64,000 nucleotides of DNA from Flavobacterium sp. (GCF_017744675.1 NZ_JAGIAV010000003.1:226719-290718), one strand, 5' to 3'; counted from the first letter of the stretch, positions 710 through 36,163 are shown. The notes: generated by a model from the sequence alone, not told the origin. A program made the numbers and translations.

Positions 710-1312
710 ATGGATAGCAATTCTAAAATCATTCGAGGCTTAATAAAAATATCGGGTAAAATATTATTCGTCATTGGATTAGTATTAAATATTTGTATGG
801 TATTTTTTGGCTTTTGGCCAAGTATTATTTATTTACTTTTTATGCTTTTAGGCGGGTTTATGATATTTACAAATAAAGATGTTGATACCAGCGTTAAATT
901 CGATCTACAAAATTTTAATTTTAGAACTATCGGTAACAATTTAAAAAAGGAAGATTTTGAAAAGTCAGTGGTTTCGTCTATTAAAATTGTTTTACTTACA
1001 CTCACAATAACTACAATTGCAATTATCGGATTTTTTTATTTTTCTAAATCTTATTATAAAAACCAGAATACAAGACAGGATTGTGAAGAAATAGTAACTG
1101 CACTAAATTCATATAAAAAAGACCTATCAAGTTATCCAAAGAGTATGGACAGCTTGATAGGTAATAATCCTTTAAGAAAGGCCTGGAAAAAAGATAGATG
1201 GAATAATGACCTGTATTACAAATCCATAAATAATGATAAAAATTTTATTTTAATTTCTAAAGGCAAAGACCAAAAATTATTTACAAAAGATGACATTGTA
1301 TTTAAAAACTAA
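710..1312 (+). CDS. Hypothetical membrane protein with a GspG/pseudopilin-like C-terminal motif
   Basis: 200-aa ORF with three hydrophobic segments. The C-terminus (KDRWNNDLYYKS..NFILISKGKDQKLFTKDDIVF) resembles the DPWG..Y.Y....S.G.DG..GT.DDI signature of T2SS major pseudopilin globular domains. It is convergent with the RHS operon. Confidence 0.55.
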   Translation: MDSNSKIIRGLIKISGKILFVIGLVLNICMVFFGFWPSIIYLLFMLLGGFMIFTNKDVDTSVKFDLQNFNFRTIGNNLKKEDFEKSVVSSIKIVLLTLTITTIAIIGFFYFSKSYYKNQNTRQDCEEIVTALNSYKKDLSSYPKSMDSLIGNNPLRKAWKKDRWNNDLYYKSINNDKNFILISKGKDQKLFTKDDIVFKN

Positions 1313-1797
1313 AATTTATATCCAGTCTTTACTTGTACTCGTTTGTTGAACTCATTAATGCTTTCATCAGTAAAATAACCTTCTAATTTATTTTTATCTG
1401 TTACATAAAACTCTTGGTAAGTTAAAGAGTTCTTATCATTAGAATCTCCATATACACCAATTGTTCCATCTCTAAAAATTCCAATTTCAGAATCATTGGT
1501 GTTTTCAGAATCTGTCATTATTTTCAATGGATTCCTTTTGCCACTGCCATCTACATAGTAATAATCCCGTTTGATAAGTCCCTCCTGTACTTTGAATTGG
1601 GTTAGTAAAATGCCGTCTTTTGGAATTTCATAAATCCTAACACCATTTTCATATTTGGTTGGCTCGCCTTTCGCGTTGTTAAATATAACATTAACCTTCC
1701 CCTTAAAACCTGACTGTATTAGGTAAATTTCTTTTTCCTTACTTTGATTACAGCCCATCAAAGAAAAAAATGTCAAAAAATAAAATACTAAATGCAT
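1309..1797 (-). CDS. Small lipoprotein; candidate cognate immunity protein of the upstream RHS toxin
   Basis: Internal ATG at 1797 gives MHLVFYFLTFFSLMGCNQS, a signal peptide plus lipobox Cys. It lies 22 nt downstream of the RHS stop on the same strand. The longer listed start (1878) would overlap the RHS 3' end. Confidence 0.6.
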   Translation of the reverse strand: MHLVFYFLTFFSLMGCNQSKEKEIYLIQSGFKGKVNVIFNNAKGEPTKYENGVRIYEIPKDGILLTQFKVQEGLIKRDYYYVDGSGKRNPLKIMTDSENTNDSEIGIFRDGTIGVYGDSNDKNSLTYQEFYVTDKNKLEGYFTDESINEFNKRVQVKTGYKF

Positions 1798-1819
1798 ATT
1801 CTTATGTTTAATTATTATC

Positions 1820-4800
1820 TTAATATCTTCCACCTGCACCAGTTCCACTAAATCCACCTGTGCCAAATCCTTCCTCAAATCCTCTTCTTTCAGTACTTAC
1901 TGGTTGTCCCTGATACATTTTATTCCATTCAGATGTTGTGTAAGTCTTATCGCCTTGTACAACTCCTGTAAAGACTCCTTTATCATCCATTGTTACTGTA
2001 AATGAGTTAGACATCATTTGTCTATTATTATCTCCTGGAAGGCTTGTATATGGATTGCCTTCATATGGACTAACTCCCATAAATAAAGCATTGCCACCAG
2101 TGTCTTTCATAAAAGTTTCGGCAGCTGGAAATTTATCGCCTGTTTGACTAATACTAACATCAAGTGTGCCAGCTTTCATATTTTCTGTCATTGTAAAGTT
2201 TGTTTTAACATCAATATCAGGTGAGCCAGGCACCAATGGATTCGCTCCAGACATTGATGATGAGAATGAAACTGTACTACTACCATCTTTATTTTGCGTT
2301 TGTTTAAAATCAGAAATACTGCCCGAAGGTTTTTCAGTAGCACTTCCCAAAATAGGGTGAGAACTCGGGTCACTTGATGTTTTCAATCCTGAATATGTAC
2401 CTGCTGTCGGATCAACTGTAACTGTTTGTTTCACTCTAGATGTCGCTGAAGCAGAAGTTGTAAATCCTCTATTGGCACCATCCCCATGAAATCCGCCACC
2501 AAAAGAGCTAAACGGTGCAAACGATCTTATGGAAATAGGAAATGGCCACATTCCGTCTGGGTCAATAAAGAAAACCGGATTGTCCATTGCATACGCATAC
2601 GGCGACCATCGTCTTCCTTTCTCCGCCAGCGGGTCAATATTCATCCATCGACCTAAAGCAGGGTCATAATTCCTTGCGCCATAGTCGTAAAAGTTAAGCC
2701 CCATCTCGTCTTGCAGCTCTTTTCCATTGTATTTATACTTATTTGCTGTTGCGAGATAATCATTATACCCTTTGTGCTTTAATCCAAAAGGATAATAATT
2801 GTTCTCCTCAATAATTTCAACAACCTGCGTTGTCGGGTTTTTAGCATAGCTAACTCGAACGTTTCCTAAATGGTCTTTGTACTGGAAAACATACGAAAGA
2901 GCTCCCGCCGTATTCTTTACATACCCCTCTGCCGTTGGGAAAAACTCCAAAACATTGTCTTTGTACTGGTAGCCTCCCAAATAATCGGTCACAGTGGTAA
3001 CCGTTCCTTCTGTTACCGCTTTCTGTATTTTTTGTCCAGACGCATTGTAAAAGTATTCAATACTTCCTGTTGTTCCAAATGTTATTTTCTTTGGCAGGTT
3101 TAAATGGTTGTAGCTGATTTCTGTAATGCTTTTATTTTTATCCGTAATCATATTTCCATTATCATCATAACTGTAATCATCATCGGTTTTATTGATGTCA
3201 TTAAATCCGCTGCTGTTGTTGGAATTGTCTACAACTTTAGACAATTGGTTAGAATTTGTCGGATAAGTGTAAACTAAATCATCTATATCAAGATTGCCTA
3301 CCTGAGGGTCGTAATCTCCTTTACGGCCCAATGTTTTAATATTTCCATTTTTGTCGTAAGACAGGTTTTCATCGTATGCGCTTGTCGTTAAACCGTTCTT
3401 TTCATAAATGGCATTGGTCAGACGGTTTAGGTTATCATACTTGTATCCATAGGCTCTTTCGTTTAAGTCTGAAGCCGTTTTCCAGAAGGTTTCTGAAATG
3501 TTTCCGTTATAAAGCGGCCTTACATCTGTGATATCGGTTTGCGTGTTTTCATAATTAATCTTGAAAGCAAACAAATCTGCAGGGTCTGTACCCTGCTGCA
3601 AATTGGCGGTTTTGTTAATTTCTTTCAGCCAGCCTCTGATATTATACTCAAAGTCTACTTTCTGAAGCGGGTTTCCTGTATTGCTTCCCACTTTTTTGCT
3701 TATAAGCTGCCCTAATGCGTCATAAGTATTCTCGGCCAAAAGTTCCACTGTCCCGCCGTTTATCTGATGGGTATGCGTAAGAAGACGGTCTTGCGGCGAA
3801 TACGTAAATTCTTCTCTTACCGCAATCTCTGGATTGCCAGAAGTCCTTTTATGTTTTGTTACGGTATAAAGCGTTTTTCCTGTAAAGTCAATCTTGCTCT
3901 CGCTTGACGTATAGCCTCCCAAATGGTTCTCAAGATAATTTTTTATTGGCCTTGCCTTATCATCATAAAATATGGTGCTCGTTTCTCCCGCAGTAGAAGA
4001 TGGTGTTGAAATGGCTCTTGTCCAGCTTCCTGAAGCCAGTGTTTTTACATTGCTTAATACAGGCTGCCCTTCAATAGAAGATGGAACAGACTGTGCGTTT
4101 GGAAACTCATAAGTGTCATAATAATTAACCGTTAAAAGCTTAAAGCTTGTCGGTTCTATAACATTGCTGTAATACGTTTCGATTCCGTCAATTGTACCAG
4201 AAGTCTGCTTGCTTTCGAATATGGCAGTTCTGCTGTTTTGTGCATCCTGAAGTGATTTTCGCGTTGCCGAATTTGAAGCCTGGCTGCTCCAGCCTGTATA
4301 AACAGGTCTGCCAAAGGCATCATATTTTGTGATAATCCATCCGATTCCACTTTCATCTTTAAAAGGAGAATAGGCAGGACCCGTAGCAACTGGCCGATCC
4401 AGCTTATCGTAAACAATAAATTCCCACTGTCTGCCTGGAAGTTTTTTCTCTGCCAGACGGTTTTTATTATCATACTTATACTGATAGCACAAGCCATTTA
4501 AAACATCGTAATCAATATTTCCTTCAGCCTTTGGAGGAATTACATAAGTAAGGTTTCCGTAAATATCGTAGACATAATACGTATCATGTTTATCTCCTCC
4601 GTTATAGGTGCGTTTCAATACAACCTGCCCTTCCTTGTTTTTAAATTCTTCTGTACCAGCATTTGATCCAGGTGCAGTATTCTCATCATAGGTAATGGTT
4701 TTAAATAGCTCACCAGCCTGATAAGTCCCTGCATCTGAAAAACTGATTCCATACAGTCCAGAACCGGCATCCCAAGTGGCTGTGGCCGTATATAGTTTTA

Positions 4801-5323
4801 CTTCATTTTCCGCGTTTGTCTGGTAGCTCAATTTAATTTCATGCCCAGAATCCATTGCCCATGAATTTCCAGGGGCTGCCTGTTTCAGAACTCGGTTTAA
4901 CGGAGAAGGTTCAAATTGTTTCTTGGAATAAGGGTTTGAACCATTTTCATATAAAGTGCTGTAAAATGAAACAGAGGCACTAATCGCCGTATTAGGGTCA
5001 ATCTTAGAATAATTGGTTCCGCTGTTGGAAACGGCGTAAGGAAGATATTCTTCCTGCTGTCTGCCAACCCCATCATACATGGCTGGGGTTACAAAATCCT
5101 CGCCGTTTCCGCCCTGCCCAATGGCTCTTGTCTGTACAGGACGTCCCAAACCATCAAAATAACTAATGTTCTGGTTCTTTTCTTCTTTGGTCAAGGTGCC
5201 TAAATTAGCTGACTGTACTGCTTTTTTTGGAGATATAGTGTAAATAAAATTATCATCACTAAAAGTTTGTCCCCAAACATTTGCTATTGTAAGCAATAGT
5301 AAGATTGGTATATATTTTTTCAT
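1820..5323 (-). CDS. RHS/YD-repeat polymorphic toxin with signal peptide, Bacteroidota-type N-terminal domain (DUF6443-like, from memory) and a variable C-terminal tip
   Basis: 1167 aa. It has an N-terminal signal peptide (MKKYIPILLLLTIANVWGQ) and many YD repeats (YDxxGN, YxYDxxNRL). The canonical RHS core end is YDPALGRWMNIDPLAEK...NPVFFIDPDGMW, followed by a 242-aa unrelated tip (1820..2548). Confidence 0.9.
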   Translation of the reverse strand: MKKYIPILLLLTIANVWGQTFSDDNFIYTISPKKAVQSANLGTLTKEEKNQNISYFDGLGRPVQTRAIGQGGNGEDFVTPAMYDGVGRQQEEYLPYAVSNSGTNYSKIDPNTAISASVSFYSTLYENGSNPYSKKQFEPSPLNRVLKQAAPGNSWAMDSGHEIKLSYQTNAENEVKLYTATATWDAGSGLYGISFSDAGTYQAGELFKTITYDENTAPGSNAGTEEFKNKEGQVVLKRTYNGGDKHDTYYVYDIYGNLTYVIPPKAEGNIDYDVLNGLCYQYKYDNKNRLAEKKLPGRQWEFIVYDKLDRPVATGPAYSPFKDESGIGWIITKYDAFGRPVYTGWSSQASNSATRKSLQDAQNSRTAIFESKQTSGTIDGIETYYSNVIEPTSFKLLTVNYYDTYEFPNAQSVPSSIEGQPVLSNVKTLASGSWTRAISTPSSTAGETSTIFYDDKARPIKNYLENHLGGYTSSESKIDFTGKTLYTVTKHKRTSGNPEIAVREEFTYSPQDRLLTHTHQINGGTVELLAENTYDALGQLISKKVGSNTGNPLQKVDFEYNIRGWLKEINKTANLQQGTDPADLFAFKINYENTQTDITDVRPLYNGNISETFWKTASDLNERAYGYKYDNLNRLTNAIYEKNGLTTSAYDENLSYDKNGNIKTLGRKGDYDPQVGNLDIDDLVYTYPTNSNQLSKVVDNSNNSSGFNDINKTDDDYSYDDNGNMITDKNKSITEISYNHLNLPKKITFGTTGSIEYFYNASGQKIQKAVTEGTVTTVTDYLGGYQYKDNVLEFFPTAEGYVKNTAGALSYVFQYKDHLGNVRVSYAKNPTTQVVEIIEENNYYPFGLKHKGYNDYLATANKYKYNGKELQDEMGLNFYDYGARNYDPALGRWMNIDPLAEKGRRWSPYAYAMDNPVFFIDPDGMWPFPISIRSFAPFSSFGGGFHGDGANRGFTTSASATSRVKQTVTVDPTAGTYSGLKTSSDPSSHPILGSATEKPSGSISDFKQTQNKDGSSTVSFSSSMSGANPLVPGSPDIDVKTNFTMTENMKAGTLDVSISQTGDKFPAAETFMKDTGGNALFMGVSPYEGNPYTSLPGDNNRQMMSNSFTVTMDDKGVFTGVVQGDKTYTTSEWNKMYQGQPVSTERRGFEEGFGTGGFSGTGAGGRY

Positions 5324-5355
5324 AAGTCTATGTTTGTCTTATTAGCCTTTAGTCT

Positions 5356-8300
5356 CTATTTTTTGGTTACAAGTAATGTTATGCTTACAATACTCTTAGC
5401 ATTTAATGTAAGGGTAGTAAGCTTACTAGTTTGGCCCGCAGCAAATTCTACAACAACCTCCTGACTTGCAGCAGCCCCCGATAGACGTAAAAAATTGACT
5501 GTAAATTTTAATGTTGCCCCATTATGATTTGATCCTGTAGCCCAAGCATCGATGCTAAGTACTTTAGTCGAAGGATCAAAATAACGTTCAAATAGAAATT
5601 CCACTTCTCTAAGGGTACATCCACCATAATTATTAGCATAACTCTGGCCATCAGCATTAAATTTAGCAAGACCTAAAGCATCAGCATCTGCCTGAGAAAT
5701 TGCCGAAGTAGCTGCTCCCGCTATTTGATTATAATAGACACTTGATCCAGACTCATTTTGTCCGCAATTATTTCTTACAAAATATCCACTTCTGGCAATA
5801 CTATTGTAAGCACAACTACCATTTGCGTTGGCATATGCCTGCCCATTATTATTTACATCTGATTGCGCTAAATTATCGGCATTTTCCTGAGAATTTGAAA
5901 CATATCTTCTACTTGGAACTGTATAGGTAACATTACTTCCTGACAAACCACCTCCACAATCATTCTTTGTAAATACTCCTGACTTAGCAACGCTGTAAAA
6001 AAAGCATTCTGCTATCATATTTGCATTATATTGTCCATTTGCATCCATGTCATTTTGAGCTAACCGATCTGCCAATACTTGTGAAGCTCCAGTATATTTT
6101 CCGGCAGGAACAGTATAAATATATGTTCCTGGAGTACTATTTGCCGGACAATCATTCTTTGTAAATGTCTTACTAATTGTTGCATTACTATATGTACACG
6201 TTCCATTGGCATTTGCGTTGGCCTGTCCGTTGGAGTTAAACAATGCAAGACCTTTTGAATCTGCATCTGCCTGAGAAAGGATTGATGTCTGGGCTCCTGC
6301 CGCCTGGCTGAATGCAACGCTTGAACCAGCTCCCCCTGCAGCGCAATCGTTCTTGGTAAAGTTTCCGCTTCTGGCAATGCTGTTAAAAGTACAGAACCCT
6401 GCGGCATTTGCATTGGCCTGTCCGTTGGAGTTAAACAATGCAAGACCTTTTGAATCTGCATCTGCCTGAGAAAGGATTGATGTCTGGGCTCCTGCCGCCT
6501 GGCTGAATGCAACGCTTGAACCAGCTCCGCCTGCAGCGCAATCGTTCTTGGTGAAGTTTCCGCTTCTGGCAATGCTGCTATAGGTGCAAAATGCATTTGA
6601 ATTTGCATAAAGCTGGCCATCAACATTAAATTTAGCAAGTCCGCGTGTATCAGCATCCCCTTGAGAAACTGTTGATATGACAGCACCAACAGCCTGATTA
6701 TAAACTACACTCGAACCTAGACCGCCTCCTTCGCAGTTATTTCTTGTAAATGTTCCTGATTGTGCTGCACTCTTATACATCTCAACACTGGTAGAAGAAT
6801 TATCACCGCAATCTATGGTCTGGCCTTTGTAATTGTAACAATACTTCTGAAGTACGTTTAATTTACTATCTTTCACAAACCTTAATCTCTGATCTGTATC
6901 ATATTCGTAATATGTCACCAATCCTTTAGGATCAGTAATGCTTGTCACTCCTACAAGCGGGTTATAAGTATAAGTTGAAATAAAGGCATTTGGCAATGTA
7001 TTTCTAAATAAGTTCAGCGCATTTCTTAACTTTTGTTCTGAACAATTATCCGACAAGCAATTATCTGAATCATCATTAGACAGCGCCTGCAGATTTGCAA
7101 TAGTCTCGGCAGGAATCGTACCGTAAACCAAGTTATCAATTTTAGCAATTGGCTGAGTTTTACTGTATCCCCAAATAATGGACACTGGGGTTCCTCCGTC
7201 TATAGTGTATTGCAGCACATTTCCTTTTTCATCATATAAATCGTAGGTGATTTTTTTATCTAAACTTAAATCTATTGCTGCTGTTCCTTTGTTAGCATAA
7301 ACAAATCTTGGAAGAAGCAGATTGCTTGTTGCACTGATTTTCTCATAACTAGTAAGCTGCTCTGATATTTTAACTCCATCTTTAAATGCTTGTGTATTTA
7401 AAGGAATTCCAATCATATTCGCTGATGCCAAATCTGAACTAAATGGTTTTGAAATCATCTCTGGATCTGGTGCGTAAAAATATTTAGTCTGCAATGTTTC
7501 TCCAACTGAGTTAGTTGTCGTTTGCGATGTTAATTGCAGATGCAATGGATTGCCATAATTAAAAGTAGTATTGCTTACTACTTTACCTTTCAAAATATTG
7601 GATGGATTATAAAAATAATTCGTTTTCTCAGATGTTTTTTGATAAAACCATAAAATTGGGATATTATATGTTATAGGTTCAATTGTTCGCAATATTTCTA
7701 CACCACCATCTACATCATATGGACACGCCGGATTTAAAGGATCCAAAGGGTTTTCTTGATTATTAGTCGTTCCCATACGAAACATCTTGAATCCATTGTA
7801 AAAAGAAGTATTGGAAGGATCTTCAAAATAAGTATTTTTCTCTTCCTCTACTATATAAGCCGCTGTTCCTACTGTTTTATAGACTTTCTTGTTCAAAACT
7901 TTACCTCTTTTCCATGCAGTGGGAATTTGTACTGTCGGGTTGCCAAAAGGTATTTCATCTGGCGCAATCGTGAATTCATACTGCGTATACCCATTATTAG
8001 CCTGATTTTTAACATCAATCTGTATTTCCCTTACATATTTATAAGCAACAGAGTTGCCTTCTATACCAAATCTGGAATTTGAACTAATACTGTAAGTAGC
8101 TGTAGAATTAAGTCCTCCTGCACATCCTATTAATTCAGGATCTACTGATCCGCATTGGATAAAACTATAATTGGTAAAACTGTTGGACTGGAAAGTAGTG
8201 CTCATTTTATTAATCAACTGACCGCTCGTATGTCCAAAATCAATAATGTCAGAGTAATCATATTGTTTCTTTAGGGCTAATGTGCTGTCATTGTCGTAAT

Positions 8301-10209
8301 TTTCTATGCTCGCAATCCTAAGTCCAGCGCCTAAATTATTTTTTGGAGTAGGATCGTTATTAACATATTTAAGCTGTAAACTATTAACACTCAAAAACTT
8401 TCCATATACCTCTACTTCTATTGTGCCAGATTCTTTCAAAAATACAGATTCATTAAACTCTTTAGTAGCAGTAAAATGGTCGGAATCGTAAACTTGAATT
8501 CCACCCGAAAATACTCTGACTCTAGCGTGGTAATATTTAGAAATTGTGGGATCTGAAGAGTCATTTTTTATTGTAAATTTCAACTGCCCTTGTGCCTCTG
8601 TGGCAGTAAAAGGAATTGATACATATTTAACACAGTCGTCAGGATTTTTATTCAAACATATTACGCCATCAATGCCTGGCCCCTCCTTTATTGGCATTGT
8701 ACCGCCTGTACCTTGTATTACACCACTGTTTACAATAACAGGAGTATATTTATCAAAAAGATCGATTCCATAAAACTGGTTTGTTTCATAATTGAATTTT
8801 GTCCAGCCTTTGGTGGGATAATGTATTTCTTTTAAAATTCCTGCCTGATTTTCCAAAGAATTTACAGAACGGTCTGCCCTGCCAACTTCAGTGGGATAAG
8901 GATAAGAAATATAATGTTTAGGTATTAGATCTACATTGTTACTTTTTCCATTATTATATCCAAAAAAATCCTGTCCTTTTGAAGTTTTATTAGGTAAAGC
9001 AATATTTGAATATGTAAACTCCTGCTCGACTCTGCCTAATAAATTAACGACTCTGTCCAGCTTTAATCTTTTGTCTGAATAGTAGCTTCCTGACGGATTA
9101 AAATAAGAGTAATCAAAAGTATAGCCCTTTACATTTCTATATCCTACATCTAATAATTGCTGGATTTCAATTTTACTCAAATATCCATTTCCGGCACCAT
9201 CAACCAGATCCTGCCTTCCCAAATTCTTTGTAAATACGATTTTGGAGTTGCCATCATTAAAAGTAATTTCTTTTATTTTTTTTAAGATTGTTACTGTATT
9301 TCCTGTCGCGTCAATAACATCTCCTATTTGGCTATTATAACTGGTTCCAGAAGGACACCCTGCTCTTATAGCATTTCTTTTTATTTCAACTCTTTGGGAA
9401 AAAGTTTTATCAGTTAAGTTTCCATCATCCTGGTAAGTGAAATTTATTTTATTATTTGATGGCGTTTTAATTTCATCCACATACCAAGCGCTAATATAGC
9501 GATCACTATGAGTCATAGATTGTATAGAAATTTCGGTAGTGCCAAGCGAATAAACATTTCCCTGAGGATCTGTTATTTTAAATTTCATGCTTTCTCTATT
9601 TAATCCCACAAGATCAACTTTAAAGGCATTTGGCGGTATGGTTACAACATCATTACTAGCAAAATTTCTAATATAAAAACTTCCGTTTACCGTAGGTGAC
9701 GAAAAAACATACATATCTTTTACCCTAGACTTATCTAGATTATAATCTAAATTTGTAACGGCAGTTTGATCATAAGGATGCAGCTTAAAATAAGCGATAA
9801 TGGCATCACCATTAGGAATTACATCAATATTAGGATTATTCTCATCAATATCATCTCTCGGACTTAAAATAACCTGTGCGCCAGCATTTAGATTCCAGCC
9901 AAGACCTACCCAAGTTGCCTCCTGGTTAACTTTTATTCCAGATGCATGATAATCTAAAGATATTGGCATCTTGAAATCTCTTAAATCAATGGTGTATAGC
10001 GGCACAGAAATACTTGGAACACCAGTAGCCAAATCAACAGGGTATTCTCCATATTTTAGAAAAGCGGCAGCCTCTGGAGATTTTGGAGCAAAATTTGGTG
10101 TTGGCGTAGCATTTTGAGTTTGCGCCTGCAAACCTATTGAGAAATATAGAAATAGTATTAAGAACAACATTATAAATGTTGCTCTTTTTGATAGTATAGA
10201 GTGTTTCAT
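5356..10209 (-). CDS. Giant secreted protein: SpvB/TcB-N-terminal-like motif, a few YD repeats, and six tandem ~65-aa Cys-containing modules (DUF5977-like, from memory)
   Basis: 1617 aa with a signal peptide. N-terminal motif: TGVPSISVPLYTI..PISLDYHASG..WVGLGWNLNAG. YD-type repeats include LVTYYEYDTDQRLRFV and ITYDLYDEKGNVL. The C-terminal module array follows. The start is 1 nt from the stop of the upstream gene. Confidence 0.85.
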   Translation of the reverse strand: MKHSILSKRATFIMLFLILFLYFSIGLQAQTQNATPTPNFAPKSPEAAAFLKYGEYPVDLATGVPSISVPLYTIDLRDFKMPISLDYHASGIKVNQEATWVGLGWNLNAGAQVILSPRDDIDENNPNIDVIPNGDAIIAYFKLHPYDQTAVTNLDYNLDKSRVKDMYVFSSPTVNGSFYIRNFASNDVVTIPPNAFKVDLVGLNRESMKFKITDPQGNVYSLGTTEISIQSMTHSDRYISAWYVDEIKTPSNNKINFTYQDDGNLTDKTFSQRVEIKRNAIRAGCPSGTSYNSQIGDVIDATGNTVTILKKIKEITFNDGNSKIVFTKNLGRQDLVDGAGNGYLSKIEIQQLLDVGYRNVKGYTFDYSYFNPSGSYYSDKRLKLDRVVNLLGRVEQEFTYSNIALPNKTSKGQDFFGYNNGKSNNVDLIPKHYISYPYPTEVGRADRSVNSLENQAGILKEIHYPTKGWTKFNYETNQFYGIDLFDKYTPVIVNSGVIQGTGGTMPIKEGPGIDGVICLNKNPDDCVKYVSIPFTATEAQGQLKFTIKNDSSDPTISKYYHARVRVFSGGIQVYDSDHFTATKEFNESVFLKESGTIEVEVYGKFLSVNSLQLKYVNNDPTPKNNLGAGLRIASIENYDNDSTLALKKQYDYSDIIDFGHTSGQLINKMSTTFQSNSFTNYSFIQCGSVDPELIGCAGGLNSTATYSISSNSRFGIEGNSVAYKYVREIQIDVKNQANNGYTQYEFTIAPDEIPFGNPTVQIPTAWKRGKVLNKKVYKTVGTAAYIVEEEKNTYFEDPSNTSFYNGFKMFRMGTTNNQENPLDPLNPACPYDVDGGVEILRTIEPITYNIPILWFYQKTSEKTNYFYNPSNILKGKVVSNTTFNYGNPLHLQLTSQTTTNSVGETLQTKYFYAPDPEMISKPFSSDLASANMIGIPLNTQAFKDGVKISEQLTSYEKISATSNLLLPRFVYANKGTAAIDLSLDKKITYDLYDEKGNVLQYTIDGGTPVSIIWGYSKTQPIAKIDNLVYGTIPAETIANLQALSNDDSDNCLSDNCSEQKLRNALNLFRNTLPNAFISTYTYNPLVGVTSITDPKGLVTYYEYDTDQRLRFVKDSKLNVLQKYCYNYKGQTIDCGDNSSTSVEMYKSAAQSGTFTRNNCEGGGLGSSVVYNQAVGAVISTVSQGDADTRGLAKFNVDGQLYANSNAFCTYSSIARSGNFTKNDCAAGGAGSSVAFSQAAGAQTSILSQADADSKGLALFNSNGQANANAAGFCTFNSIARSGNFTKNDCAAGGAGSSVAFSQAAGAQTSILSQADADSKGLALFNSNGQANANANGTCTYSNATISKTFTKNDCPANSTPGTYIYTVPAGKYTGASQVLADRLAQNDMDANGQYNANMIAECFFYSVAKSGVFTKNDCGGGLSGSNVTYTVPSRRYVSNSQENADNLAQSDVNNNGQAYANANGSCAYNSIARSGYFVRNNCGQNESGSSVYYNQIAGAATSAISQADADALGLAKFNADGQSYANNYGGCTLREVEFLFERYFDPSTKVLSIDAWATGSNHNGATLKFTVNFLRLSGAAASQEVVVEFAAGQTSKLTTLTLNAKSIVSITLLVTKK
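5617..6777 (-). repeat. Array of six tandem ~65-aa protein modules inside the giant protein
   Basis: Recurring pattern: S(I/V)A(R/K)SG.FT(K/R)N(D/N)C..G..GS.V.Y......A..S..SQ.DAD..(G)LA.F(N)..GQ..AN..G.C, seen six times in the translation. Confidence 0.8.
6207..6585. repeat. Near-identical 195-bp tandem DNA duplication (modules 2 and 3 of the array)
   Basis: gcctgtccgttggagttaaacaatgcaagacc... begins at 6221 and again at 6416 (period 195 bp = 65 codons). I see only about two mismatches over ~165 nt. Confidence 0.9.
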
Positions 10210-10210
10210 T

Positions 10211-11881
10211 TTATTTACCTGTTATTCTTTTAATCACTTTAACCGATTCGGTTTTAACGTCTGTTTTTATGACAATAAGATACACTCCTTCCGCATATCT
10301 GCTTAAATCTACCGGAACCGTCCTGCTTGAAATGGCAAAACTCTGAAGTGTTCTTCCTAAAATGTCCACGACACTTGCCGTACCTTGGTTAAAATCATAA
10401 CCGATAATCACATTGGTGTAAGCAGAAGTTGGGTTAGGAGCCGCTTCAATGCTGGATTTCACTTTTTCTACCTTCGCTTTATCCTTGAGCTTAACAACCC
10501 AGAAATCATTTGATCCGATATTGGAATTCTTATCCTTTGAAGAGCCTGAATTGGATGTGCCTGCCATTAGATATCCTCCATCTCTGGTTTCAATCAGTTT
10601 TCGAAGTATGTCTTCTCCTCCGCTTCCTACGGTTTTATTCCAAAGTTCCTCCCCTTCACTGCTTACTTTTAAAGCAACGTAGTCGTTGATGCCGTCTTTT
10701 TCTTTGCCAACCATTCCCACTGCTTTTGACACCAGACTGCCCCCGCCAGATTTTGGGCGCGCATTGCGGGCATGCCCGCCGATCAGATAAGTGCCATCTT
10801 CGTTTTCAACCAATGAAGTCAAGATATCCACTTTGCCAAAGTCAAAAGTCTTGCTCCAAACGACACCTCCTTCTTTGTCTAATTTAAGAATCCAATAATC
10901 TGTCCCGTTGGCAACAATTCCTCCTTCAGAGGTTAGTGCATTAGAACTGTTTGAATTTCCTCCCAAAATATAGCCTTCATCTTTAGTCTGATGGATTACA
11001 TAAGGCTGGTCATCGCCATTGCCTCCATACGTTTTTTGCCATTCGATTGCTCCCGTATCGTTTATCTTTACAATCCAATAGTCTCCAACTCCTTTATTGC
11101 CTTCTGTCTTATCGCCCGACACAGGAGAATTGGAATATCCGGCAAGAATATATCCGTTATCAGAAGTCTGTTCCATGCTTCTCAAAATATCCGAATATTG
11201 GCCTCCATAGGTTTTCTGCCATTGAATTGCGCCTTCTTTATCTAATTTGACAATCCAATAGTCCATGCTGCCTCTGCATTTCTCCGATTTGGAATAAATG
11301 TCTGTTGCAAAAGTGCTTTCGTTAAGCTTAGAATTTGAAATTGAATTTGGACTTGAGCTTGAAGAGCCTCCTAAAATGTAGCCCCCATCTCTTGTCTGAA
11401 AAGCGCATAGCAATTCATCCTGGCCACTTCCTCCTATAGTTCTCTGCCATTGCTCATTTCCAGCGGCATTTAATTTTATGACCCAGAAATCGGAAAGGCC
11501 TTTGCAGTTTTCCTTTTTTTGAAAGCTTTTGGAAGAGCTTGAAGTCCCGGCAAGAATAAATCCCCCGTCTCTGGTGTTTTTAATGCTTTGAAGAAAATCA
11601 AAGCCAGAACCGCCAAAGCTTTTCTGCCAGTCGGGTTCTCCATTTTCTTTCATTTTCCAGACCCAAAAGTCTAAATCTCCATGATTGTCTTCCTCCTTAG
11701 TTCCTGTTTTGTCAGAAAGCGAGCTTCCTGCCAAAATAAAACCGTAATCGGCCGTCGGCTGCGCGTCAAAAAGGTAATCGGCATGCGTGCCGCCATATGA
11801 CTTTTCCCAAAGGATATCTTGGGAACGAACAAGAAAAGACACAAAAAAAAGAAGAAGCAGGTAAAATTTCCGCATACGCAT
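10211..11881 (-). CDS. T9SS type-A C-terminal sorting domain protein with ~8 beta-propeller-like (SBBP-like) repeats
   Basis: 556 aa with a signal peptide. The repeat W(Q/E)K(T/S)(Y/F)GG..D......T.DGG(Y/F)ILAG.S.S.......G..D(F/Y)W(V/I)VKL...G recurs about eight times. The C-terminal ~80 aa (APNPTSAYTNVIIGY...VDILGRTL...GVYLIVIKTD...VKVIK) match the T9SS CTD pattern. Confidence 0.85.
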   Translation of the reverse strand: MRMRKFYLLLLFFVSFLVRSQDILWEKSYGGTHADYLFDAQPTADYGFILAGSSLSDKTGTKEEDNHGDLDFWVWKMKENGEPDWQKSFGGSGFDFLQSIKNTRDGGFILAGTSSSSKSFQKKENCKGLSDFWVIKLNAAGNEQWQRTIGGSGQDELLCAFQTRDGGYILGGSSSSSPNSISNSKLNESTFATDIYSKSEKCRGSMDYWIVKLDKEGAIQWQKTYGGQYSDILRSMEQTSDNGYILAGYSNSPVSGDKTEGNKGVGDYWIVKINDTGAIEWQKTYGGNGDDQPYVIHQTKDEGYILGGNSNSSNALTSEGGIVANGTDYWILKLDKEGGVVWSKTFDFGKVDILTSLVENEDGTYLIGGHARNARPKSGGGSLVSKAVGMVGKEKDGINDYVALKVSSEGEELWNKTVGSGGEDILRKLIETRDGGYLMAGTSNSGSSKDKNSNIGSNDFWVVKLKDKAKVEKVKSSIEAAPNPTSAYTNVIIGYDFNQGTASVVDILGRTLQSFAISSRTVPVDLSRYAEGVYLIVIKTDVKTESVKVIKRITGK

Positions 11882-15351: not shown

Positions 15352-17736
<2,385 letters not shown>

Positions 17737-34012: not shown

Positions 34013-36163
34013 ATGACTATGAAAAATTACCAAGATGATAAACAGCGTGATCTATCGGTTAATAAATCGGATGGCACCAATAAAACCCTAACCACCAATC
34101 AAGGGGTAAAAATCAACGACGACAATAATTCGCTTAAAGCGGGAGAAAGAGGGCCTTCGCTACTAGAAGATTTTATCCTGAGAGAAAAAATCACGCATTT
34201 TGACCATGAGAGAATTCCCGAGCGCGTTGTACATGCACGAGGATCGGGAGCGCACGGATTTTTTGAGGTGACAAATCCGATTCCAGAACTTACCAAAGCT
34301 GGATTTCTACAGGAGAAAGGTCTTAAAACACCTGTATTTGCTCGATTCTCTACTGTAGCGGGCTCAAGAGGTTCAACTGATCTTGCTAGAGACGTAAGAG
34401 GATTTGCTGTCAAATTCTACACCCAGGAAGGCGTTTTTGATCTTGTAGGAAATAATATTCCCGTATTTTTTATACAAGATGCCTCTAAATTTCCTGATCT
34501 AGTTCATGCCGTAAAACCCGAACCTCATAATGAAATGCCACAAGCCGCTTCTGCGCATGACACTTTCTGGGATTTTATTTCACTAATGCCCGAATCGGCC
34601 CATATGATCATGTGGCTAATGTCTGATCGCGCTATCCCGAGAAGCTATAGAATGATGGAAGGTTTTGGTGTGCATACTTTCAGGCTTGTAAATGCTGAAG
34701 AAGAATCTGTATTTGTAAAATTCCATTGGAAACCTAAATTAGGCACTCATGCCGTAGCTTGGGATGAAGCACAGAAAATCTCTGGAAAAAATCCTGACTT
34801 TCATAGGGAAGATTTATGGCAAGCGATCGAAATGGGACATTTTCCAGAATGGGAACTTGGCGTCCAGATTATTCCTGCGGCAGATGAACATAATTACGAC
34901 TTTGATCTGCTAGATCCTACCAAAATTGTTCCTGAAGAAACTATTCCTGTTACAATCGTAGGCCGAATGGTTCTCAATAAAAATCCTGATAATTTCTTTG
35001 CCGAAACAGAGCAGATTGCTTTCCATCCCGGACATGTGGTTCCAGGCATCGATTTTACCAACGATCCTTTGCTTCAAGGAAGACTGTTTTCTTATACCGA
35101 TACACAGCTAATCCGTTTAGGGGGACCTAATTTTCACGAAATACCAATTAACAGAAGCATCGCTCCAACGCATAACAACCAGCGAGATGGGTTTATGCGT
35201 CAAGAAATCAATAAAGGAAGAGTAAGTTATCATCCAAACTCACTGGGAGGAGGATGTCCGTACCAAGCTAAAATTGCTGAAGGTGGCTTCTCCAGTTTTA
35301 ATGAGCGTATTGAAGCACACAAAGTAAGAGAAAGAAGCAAAAGTTTTACCGATCACTTCAGTCAGGCCAGACTGTTTTTCAACAGCCAAACCCCAGAAGA
35401 AAAAAGCCATATTGTAAAAGCATTGCGCTTTGAACTTGGTAAGGTCGAAACCACAGCAGTACGAGTGCGAATGCTTGGCATTCTTTCTCAGATTGATGCT
35501 CAACTAGCTGAAAAAGTAGCTATAGGATTAGGAGCGTCAGTTCCTCCTGTACTTGAAACCCCTATAAACAAAGGAGTATCTCCTGAAACCGAGGAAGCTG
35601 GTACGCAAGAACCTAAGATAACAGACTTGCATACAGATGCTTCACAAGCGTTAAGCATGGTAGACAATCCGACCAATTCACCAACTATCGAATCTCGAAA
35701 AATCGCCATCCTTTGCACCAATGGTGTTTCTGAGGTTTCGGTGATGCGAATGAAAAATGCATTGAAAGAAGCAGGTGCAAAAGGCGTCGTGGTTGCGCCT
35801 CATTTAGGCTCAATTCTTACTGATGCTGATACGGCGCTTAGCGCAGAATATAGTTTTCTAACGGCTTCATCTGTTTTGTTTGATGCGGTTTACGTACCAC
35901 ACGGACTAGATCAAACTGCTCTTGCAGGAAGTGAAGAAGCAATCGAGTATTTAAATGATGCGTACAAACATTGTAAAGTAATCGGAGCTGACGGAAATGG
36001 CGTTCAGGTGATCAGTGCTACTCCATTTGCCTCAAAAATCAATAATGACGATCCTGCACTGATTCTTAATAGCGAACCTGCTTCAGAATCTTTTGCTCAA
36101 GAATTTATCACAGCAATGACGCTTCACCGCTACTGGCAGCGAGAACCAAATCTATACAATTAA
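34013..36163 (+). CDS. katE: Large-subunit monofunctional catalase (HPII type)
   Basis: 716 aa. Motifs [23 protein letters not shown] and RLFSYTDTQ, plus a C-terminal DJ-1/PfpI-like extension typical of HPII. Confidence 0.95.

Follow-up and report, generated by a model that had tools for sequence, protein, structure and literature searches.

A 64,000-nucleotide stretch of the genome of Flavobacterium sp. (NZ_JAGIAV010000003.1:226719-290718; hereafter the window, with positions counted from its first letter) contains an operon of four minus-strand genes at 1309-11881. It is close to certain that this operon is an RHS polymorphic toxin module with a candidate immunity gene. Besides the RHS protein, the operon encodes a giant protein whose conserved core has a predicted fold most like that of TcB, the partner of TcC in Tc toxins, and the genes for these two large proteins are kept together throughout the phylum Bacteroidota. 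We give an even chance to the interpretation that the giant and the RHS protein form a Sec-exported encapsulated polymorphic toxin that is BC-like (that is, resembling the TcB-TcC pair), dispenses with TcA, bears a stalk arm, is accompanied by an immunity protein, and is used in bacterial competition.

Organization of the operon

10211-11881, minus strand: gene 1, propeller protein with a type IX secretion system (T9SS) sorting domain, 556 amino acids (aa)
5356-10209, minus strand: gene 2, giant TcB-like protein, 1617 aa
1820-5323, minus strand: gene 3, RHS toxin protein, 1167 aa
1309-1797, minus strand: gene 4, lipoprotein immunity candidate (DUF6843), 162 aa, from an internal ATG at 1797

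In the list of open reading frames (ORFs) of the window, from which these genes are taken, the gaps between them measure 1, 32 and 22 nucleotides, bearing out the four packed genes, with their coordinates, sizes and gaps, that had been described in an initial annotation made from the sequence alone. For gene 4, the mechanically called ORF spans 1309-1878 and begins at a TTG (1878) within the RHS gene; translation from the internal ATG (1797) yields a product of 162 aa, MHLVFYFLTFFSLMGC..., with its lipobox-like LMGC.

Read directly from the sequence, the N-termini of the giant, the RHS protein and the propeller each consist of a basic and then a hydrophobic stretch, in agreement with the Sec-type signals already ascribed to both large proteins. 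This property extends to their homologues. Scored with a Kyte-Doolittle hydrophobicity window rather than a trained predictor, a hydrophobic N-terminus is present in 78 of 82 homologues of the giant's core, 54 of 54 RHS homologues and 20 of 20 propeller homologues.

The RHS toxin and its candidate immunity protein

The RHS protein has the following parts.

aa 29-169: DUF6443 (Pfam, E 8e-42)
aa 170-842: RHS shell (RHS_repeat, E 2.4e-7)
aa 843-925: Rhs-associated core (TIGR03696, E 5.3e-20), ending in DPDGM at aa 921-925
nucleotides 1823-2548, minus strand: C-terminal toxin, 241 aa, downstream of DPDGM

In an alignment of 42 RHS homologues, the invariant columns end at G924 and no consensus exists beyond it, while the C-termini of the homologues comprise HNH, Tox-REase-7, Tox-MPTase, ParB-type and other domains. 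Together, the abrupt stop in conservation and the variety of C-terminal toxin families are the signature of a polymorphic toxin. The 241-residue toxin itself has no match in Pfam or the PDB. Its 123 homologues, all of whose named sources are Bacteroidota, are mostly ORFs of 230-400 aa that combine the tip of the Rhs core with the toxin and thus represent orphan cassettes; examples lie at two of the related loci examined, L082 (8001-8936) and L083 (8001-9494).

Gene 4, located 22 nucleotides downstream of the RHS gene, encodes a DUF6843 protein (Pfam, E 6.5e-23) with a lipoprotein-type signal (LMG-C). At L083, an independent locus on a Chryseobacterium-like contig, an orphan cassette with the same toxin is likewise followed by a DUF6843 gene, and this second pairing supports the view that the two form a toxin-immunity pair. 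The earlier proposal of an RHS toxin with a lipoprotein immunity candidate is therefore sustained by the domain content, by the polymorphic C-termini and by the recurrence of the DUF6843 pairing.

Many RHS toxins of gram-negative bacteria are type VI secretion system (T6SS) effectors, and some Flavobacterium species have its subtype iii. The RHS protein could in principle be an effector of this subtype, with the exporter encoded elsewhere in the genome. However, Sec-type N-termini, conserved as they are in all 54 RHS and 78 of 82 core homologues, are unexpected for T6SS cargo and make such export unlikely; the immunity candidate, moreover, is a lipoprotein. PAAR, VgrG and Hcp are absent from the operon proteins and from 22 other scanned ORFs of the window, a set that includes every ORF of at least 279 aa and leaves out approximately 16 ORFs of 150-279 aa. 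Among these 22 ORFs, there is no match to the VgrG, Hcp, PAAR, TcA or TpsB families, and to that extent the earlier statement that no VgrG, Hcp, PAAR, TcA or two-partner secretion (TPS)-type gene lies nearby holds. Outside the operon, no ORF of the window is longer than 1,343 aa, and none is TcA-sized or TcA-like. Taken together, we consider a T6SS effector extremely unlikely. The operon also has no match in plasmid records.

The giant protein has a TcB-like core

The giant consists of a conserved core, a repeat array and a cap.

6820-10209, minus strand: conserved core, aa 1-1130 (AlphaFold2 model, Foldseek and homologue conservation)
core aa ~56-400: SpvB-like N-terminal region with RHS-type long beta-hairpins, following the signal peptide
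core aa ~401-770: middle insertion of short strands
core aa 771-1125: second RHS-type sheet, helical hairpin and terminal YD repeats
5605-6819, minus strand: DUF5977 array, six tandem repeats, aa 1131-1535 (Pfam, E 4e-119)
5356-5604, minus strand: C-terminal cap, ~82 aa and the stop codon (alignment inspected by eye)

Conservation among homologues of the giant is confined to the first ~1,100 residues, and most relatives are ~1,100-aa proteins annotated as hypothetical, YD repeat or RHS repeat proteins. The exact protein match (P0001) is assigned to a metagenome-assembled genome of Flavobacterium sp. No Pfam family covers the core. The family is very large, with 29,675 representative clusters at E <= 1e-3 in an exhaustive profile search and at least 16,955 clusters at E <= 1e-30.

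An AlphaFold2 model of aa 1-1130, built from a 35-sequence alignment, is confident (pLDDT 84.7, pTM 0.78). When this model is compared with the PDB by Foldseek, entries that contain TcB rank at the top (TMq and TMt denote TM-scores relative to query and target).

TcB chains (TcdB2-TccC3, YenB): E 4e-20 to 1e-17, TMq 0.37-0.40
T6SS Rhs shells: E 1e-18 to 3e-13, TMq 0.08-0.17
Teneurins and teneurin-like proteins: E 1e-12 to 3e-7, TMq 0.07-0.13

The isolated SpvB N-terminal domain (6p0x) gives a TMt of 0.47 against the same model. The RHS-type sheet of the core is arranged as an open half-shell, as judged from its long beta-hairpins, from the detection of RHS_repeat in 33 of 35 core family members and from TcB as the best Foldseek match; NCBIfam places a YD repeat near aa 1069-1102 of the giant. 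Where TcB has its middle beta-propeller, which gates the cocoon and docks on TcA, the model contains an insertion of ~370 aa made of short strands.

In sequence, the resemblance is weak and confined to the N-terminus. The motif TGVPSISVPLYTI..PISLDYHASG..WVGLGWNLNAG, which the initial annotation had quoted as resembling SpvB and TcB, is present at aa 61-111 of the giant. The Pfam SpvB family matches aa 62-279 with 18-19.5 bits, below its 22-bit cutoff; weak SpvB matches occur in 2 of 35 core members, and one homologue (P0407) reaches 26.1 bits, above the cutoff. The giant's own sequence finds no match in the PDB, and the profile of the core family yields marginal matches to YenB (E 0.14) and to YD repeats. 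Six bona fide plasmid TcBs, all encoded beside TcA-type, neuraminidase-like genes, were aligned. With hhalign, residues 59-262 of the core family align co-linearly to residues 33-214 of this TcB alignment at a probability of 60% and E 8.7e-5, and comparison with a single TcB sequence gives a probability of 6.8%.

The core, as modeled, is thus TcB-like in overall fold and N-terminus, but it is not a member of the TcB family, because the TcB mid-domain is not found in it and no TcA was found beside core genes, the upstream genes scanned at related loci being unrelated housekeeping genes. As a result, the proposed SpvB/TcB likeness stands for the fold, in which TcdB2 and YenB are the best structural matches, and for a weak SpvB-type N-terminus, and fails for the mid-propeller, which is undetected by sequence.

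A variable C-terminal arm

Beyond the core, the C-termini of homologues vary and carry from 1 to 25 copies of DUF5977, PKD, BACON or fn3 domains, or nothing. DUF5977 has been placed among the stalk domains in a published inventory of fibrillar adhesins (PMC8286594). The modules of this arm (DUF5977, PKD, BACON, fn3) are of extracellular type and for that reason count in favor of a Sec-exported, BC-like toxin. The cap that ends the giant is conserved among close Flavobacterium homologues, as seen by eye in a C-terminal alignment, and has no Pfam or NCBIfam match at E <= 10. The range in copy number of DUF5977 suggests frequent recombinational expansion and contraction. In the giant itself, a 195-bp tandem duplication at 6208-6577, 98% identical, encodes two identical DUF5977 repeats; the repeat also produces, as a frame artefact, a same-strand ORF of 209 aa at 6060-6689.

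The parallel once drawn between the 1617- and 1167-aa proteins and the sizes of TcB and TcC is partly accidental, since only ~1,100 residues of the giant are conserved core and the remaining 490 aa are variable stalk and cap. The comparison that matters is between the ~1,100-residue core and ~925 residues of the RHS protein.

The gene pair is conserved across Bacteroidota

When one genome per species was scanned, relatives of the core were encoded in at least 575 stretches, from which 79 loci were kept. All 79 are from Bacteroidota, and they include the following.

Flavobacteriia: Flavobacterium, Aquimarina, Tenacibaculum, Polaribacter, Winogradskyella, Chryseobacterium, Kaistella, Halpernia
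Cytophagia: Hymenobacter, Fulvivirga, Chryseolinea, Cyclobacteriaceae
Chitinophagia: Terrimonas, Ferruginibacter
Sphingobacteriia: Sphingobacteriales
Bacteroidia: Marinifilum and Bacteroidales genomes assembled from metagenomes

Downstream synteny was counted for those 62 core genes whose downstream flank extends for 800 bp or more. A DUF6443-RHS gene directly follows the core gene in 51 of them, mostly at a gap of 1-30 nucleotides. Four further loci are rearranged, three by an intervening propeller or second core gene and one by reversal of the order, and their inclusion raises the number of loci with both genes to 55 of 62. At five other loci, the core gene is followed by a large secreted repeat protein that is truncated by the end of the contig.

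The order can also be recovered from the RHS side. In Flavobacterium fluviale and Flavobacterium tructae, the DUF6443-RHS gene is preceded by genes for a ~550-aa Por_Secre_tail protein and a DUF5977 giant, and each of the two RHS genes has a different small ORF behind it. The trio recurs in Myroides odoratus, together with a downstream orphan cassette that carries the toxin type of the window. With respect to the gene order expected from the initial annotation, the giant-RHS pair is therefore widely syntenic (51/62, or 55/62 with rearrangements), and the propeller is present at only 16 of 65 loci.

At L057 and L063, truncated ORFs downstream of the TcB-like genes open with DxDGDGxG...CxDxD repeats. 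In approximately ten loci, mostly from marine Flavobacteriaceae (L013, L014, L017, L029, L043, L046, L051, L054, L067 and L078), the core and RHS genes are separated by a small ORF that encodes a secreted protein of 131-174 aa; one of these proteins has a weak lipocalin-like match (E 4e-4). Loci that lack the propeller may use these small proteins as an alternative accessory.

A model for assembly and delivery

In the mechanism that we favor, the giant and the RHS protein would leave the cytoplasm via Sec, the giant's core serving as a TcB-like shell subunit and the DUF6443-RHS protein as a TcC-like subunit. The two proteins would assemble in the periplasm or at the cell surface into one toxin-enclosing, BC-like cocoon, and the aspartyl autoprotease of the Rhs core would cleave the toxin after DPDGM and leave it inside the shell. 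On the B-like subunit, the six DUF5977 repeats and the cap may form a stalk or binding arm, for binding or display, that could stand in for the receptor-binding role of TcA in Tc toxins. Protection of the producer and related cells would fall to the DUF6843 lipoprotein. The propeller, in Flavobacterium, Myroides and Weeksellaceae, may tether the complex or aid its export, though the core module can do without it.

A number of observations weigh against this mechanism. The case for co-assembly comes down to fold resemblance and synteny. The core reaches TM-scores of less than 0.5 against TcB, the two are alike in sequence over only ~200 N-terminal residues at the hhalign probability of 60%, and the TcB mid-propeller (TcdB_toxin_midN/midC) is found in 0 of 35 family members at E <= 0.1. 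The model of the RHS protein is of low confidence (pLDDT 56.5), because all homologues available for its alignment are at least 56% identical to it. In this model the protein superposes best on TcC (YenC2, TMt 0.50 at a root-mean-square deviation of ~9 Å; RHS2 and TccC2, 0.39) and less well on T6SS Rhs shells (TM 0.11-0.19), so that a TcC-like shape is suggestive only and, given the poor model, counts for little. TcB-TcC fusions are known, and none of the 238 core family members is a core-RHS fusion, which is mild evidence against obligate co-assembly. Additionally, no outer-membrane route was identified for the giant or the RHS protein, and the RHS shell of ~750 aa with the 140-aa DUF6443 could close upon itself, as in teneurins.

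This last point leads to a different picture, in which the RHS protein is a self-sufficient cocoon plugged by DUF6443 and the giant is a separate surface carrier or adhesin that docks or delivers it. The ~900 RHS residues that precede the cleavage site, including a discrete N-terminal domain of 140 aa, are in line with such a closed shell, as are the adhesin-type repeats that extend the giant at its C-terminus, the lack of core-RHS fusions and the lack of a detectable TcB mid-propeller. Nevertheless, the best fold matches of the core are open TcB half-shells rather than adhesins or closed shells, the RHS model is, at low confidence, nearer to TcC than to closed Rhs shells, and the core and RHS genes lie very close together at nearly all loci, as would be expected of obligate partners. 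We regard a self-sufficient RHS cocoon as possible but somewhat doubtful.

A TcB-like fold in the shell subunit, together with a toxin domain that matches no known family, would fit an anti-eukaryotic toxin akin to the insecticidal Tc toxins, as opposed to an interbacterial weapon. Against such a role, an immunity-type gene lies directly downstream of the toxin and the toxin-DUF6843 pairing recurs elsewhere, orphan toxin cassettes are common, homologues bear nuclease-type and other antibacterial-type toxin domains, and TcA is not present. The immunity gene and the orphan cassettes in particular make an anti-eukaryotic role very unlikely.

The T9SS-sorted propeller is a lineage-specific accessory

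The propeller protein is composed of a seven-bladed beta-propeller (aa 21-480), with seven W-x-K-x-x-G-G blade motifs, and a T9SS type A sorting domain (aa 481-556, nucleotides 10214-10441). The sorting domain scores above cutoff with both Por_Secre_tail (PF18962; 31.5 bits against a cutoff of 27, E 2.2e-7) and TIGR04183 (38.8 against 23, E 6.9e-10). In one and the same search, the propeller's tail gives E 3.6e-11 and the last 109 aa of the giant give no match at all even at E <= 10. Neither the RHS protein, searched against Pfam and NCBIfam, nor any homologue of the giant that was examined has such a domain. The sorting domain is thus confined to gene 1, as had been noted from the sequence. 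The closest solved relative of the gene 1 propeller (10442-11821, minus strand) is the seven-bladed C-terminal propeller of CylK, which it resembles over aa 198-388 (E 8e-18). An alkylating enzyme from cyanobacteria, CylK is an unexpected relative for T9SS cargo.

Among the 65 loci with enough upstream flank, a propeller homologue with an intact sorting domain lies immediately upstream of the core gene in 16, all from Flavobacterium and Weeksellaceae; the Myroides trio, from the separate look-up, is additional. At L020, the propeller gene sits between the two large genes. Propeller identity among these loci falls to ~31%, and the conservation of the gene beside the module argues for a functional link in those lineages. 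Elsewhere, the core gene is the first of the operon and lies behind genes for fumarase, a thioredoxin-reductase-like protein, glycerol kinase, QueG or cytochrome oxidase. Moreover, the propeller is not specific to this module, since at L008 (1-2850, minus strand) the gene behind a propeller gene 89% identical to that of the window encodes, in place of a TcB-like protein, another secreted protein, rich in DxDGDGxG...CxDxD repeats; large secreted proteins of more than one kind may make use of the propeller.

These distributions bear on whether the BC-like pair piggy-backs on the T9SS-sorted propeller, with the T9SS as its route across the outer membrane, as an add-on in this lineage. Such an arrangement would account for the propeller gene ending 1 nucleotide from the start codon of the giant, for sorted propeller homologues that adjoin the module in several genera of Flavobacteriaceae and Weeksellaceae, and for the restriction of the retrieved loci to Bacteroidota, the phylum that has the T9SS. 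A published precedent, itself a hypothesis, exists in the TANFOR toxins (PMC7073777). On the other hand, the propeller is found at only 16 of 65 loci, most lineages having the core gene first, no giant homologue examined has a sorting domain, and the L008 propeller precedes a different protein. Piggy-backing on the propeller is, on balance, unlikely. Because it is present at only 16 of 65 related loci, the propeller is a lineage-specific accessory and not a general export route, and the initial suggestion that it displays or releases the BC-like pair does not hold as a general device.

A broader form of the BC-like interpretation is a phylum-wide, TcA-independent BC-type system that reaches the surface without a canonical sorting domain and is targeted by its adhesin arm. 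In this form, piggy-backing on the T9SS-sorted propeller could be the route used in Flavobacterium and Weeksellaceae. We consider this whole combination rather improbable; if true, it would be a new mode of contact-dependent or diffusible interbacterial killing.

Relation to known toxin systems

The operon is most readily compared with TcB-TcC of Tc toxins, such as TcdB2-TccC3 of Photorhabdus and YenB-YenC2 of Yersinia. In both, the genes are adjacent, tightly spaced and ordered B then C. The giant is like TcB in its weakly matching SpvB-type N-terminus, its RHS-type sheet and its best fold match, and gene 3 is like TcC in its RHS repeats, Rhs core and variable C-terminal toxin. Unlike Tc toxins, however, the operon lacks TcA, the giant lacks a detectable mid-propeller, and its core is ~350 aa shorter than TcB. 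The B-like subunit bears adhesin-type C-terminal repeats, the RHS partner has an N-terminal DUF6443 that TcC does not, and both large proteins have Sec-type signals. Furthermore, the immunity gene and orphan cassettes here point to bacterial targets. Where the large proteins of the operon have Sec-type signals, Tc subunits leave the cell by lysis (PMC10847048).

T6SS Rhs effectors (RhsA, Tse5, Tre23-Rhs, Tse15) share with the operon an RHS shell, an autoprotease motif, polymorphic toxins, an immunity gene and orphan cassettes. They differ in that PAAR or VgrG coupling takes the place of the Sec signal seen here, and in the conserved, separate TcB-like partner of the present system. The scanned window ORFs include no T6SS genes, and superposition on the closed shells is poor (TM 0.10-0.19).

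The Bacteroidota-restricted TANFOR toxins have a signal peptide and no sorting domain, and products of neighboring genes bear one; their authors proposed export by the T9SS as a hypothesis (PMC7073777). Like the present operon, they combine polymorphic C-terminal toxins and immunity genes with a signal peptide in place of a T9SS sorting domain. The TANFOR-domain scaffold is nevertheless unrelated to the RHS shell, and it has neither a two-subunit shell nor an SpvB-like partner. Teneurins and bacterial teneurin-like proteins also resemble the module in that a YD/RHS shell encloses a toxin-like C-terminus and extracellular binding domains are attached. In contrast to the gene pair described here, each of them is one polypeptide that includes its own plug and an NHL propeller, and the fold match is much weaker (TMq 0.07-0.13).

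The building blocks are all familiar, namely RHS shells, the SpvB/TcB fold, polymorphic toxins and T9SS sorting domains. What is undescribed is their combination, in which a TcB-like and an RHS protein are paired, are exported by Sec, lack a TcA and are accompanied in some cases by a T9SS propeller. The searchable full-text literature contains no mention of DUF6443 that we could find, mentions DUF5977, in one case only in passing, and yields nothing for YD repeats with T9SS or for Fjoh with YD repeats. It likewise holds no description of a TcB-like partner for Bacteroidota RHS toxins, so that, as far as this literature goes, the claim that the architecture has no characterized counterpart holds.

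RHS toxins are usually explained through the machine that carries them, whether a T6SS, a Tc complex or anchoring to the cell wall. In the present case, Sec-exported RHS toxins across Bacteroidota have their partners in a very large family of TcB-like proteins that has not been studied, and neither TcA nor T6SS coupling is involved. Were the two proteins to build a BC-type cocoon, the range of encapsulated-toxin delivery would grow to include a major phylum of environmental and host-associated bacteria. This would raise the questions of how a folded shell of ~250 kDa crosses the outer membrane and how the cargo enters the target cell without TcA, and would suggest functions for DUF6443, DUF5977 and DUF6843. 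The module is also a testable case for non-canonical T9SS cargo.

Genomic context

On the opposite strand, an ORF at 710-1312 (plus strand, 200 aa) with N-terminal membrane segments and a GspG-like (T2SSG) C-terminal domain (E 4e-7) converges with the operon and overlaps the end of the immunity gene by 4 nucleotides. The guanine-cytosine content of the first 2 kb of the window is 29.5%, compared with ~35-40% elsewhere. Directly upstream of the TcB-like gene, L032 and L044 have a gene for a pilin-like protein (N_methyl motif) together with a T2SSF gene, and the ORFs found upstream at L056 and L057 are similar to shufflon pilin or to tail fibre proteins of the T4 gp36 type. A link to type II secretion or pilins was set aside, the T2SSG-like ORF, L032 and L044 being too few loci for generality.

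The remainder of the window encodes KatG, a large catalase with a DJ-1-like C-terminus, a DNA-deoxyinosine glycosylase and transporters. In addition, a minus-strand run of glycoside hydrolase (GH) genes comprises GH95, an arabinofuranosidase, two GH28, GH2 and GH92, alongside a hybrid two-component regulator, a sodium:solute symporter and myo-inositol oxygenase. The catalase and glycoside hydrolase stretches, at 15352-17625, 34013-36163 and 38234-63937, reflect ordinary polysaccharide use and have no relation to the toxin operon.

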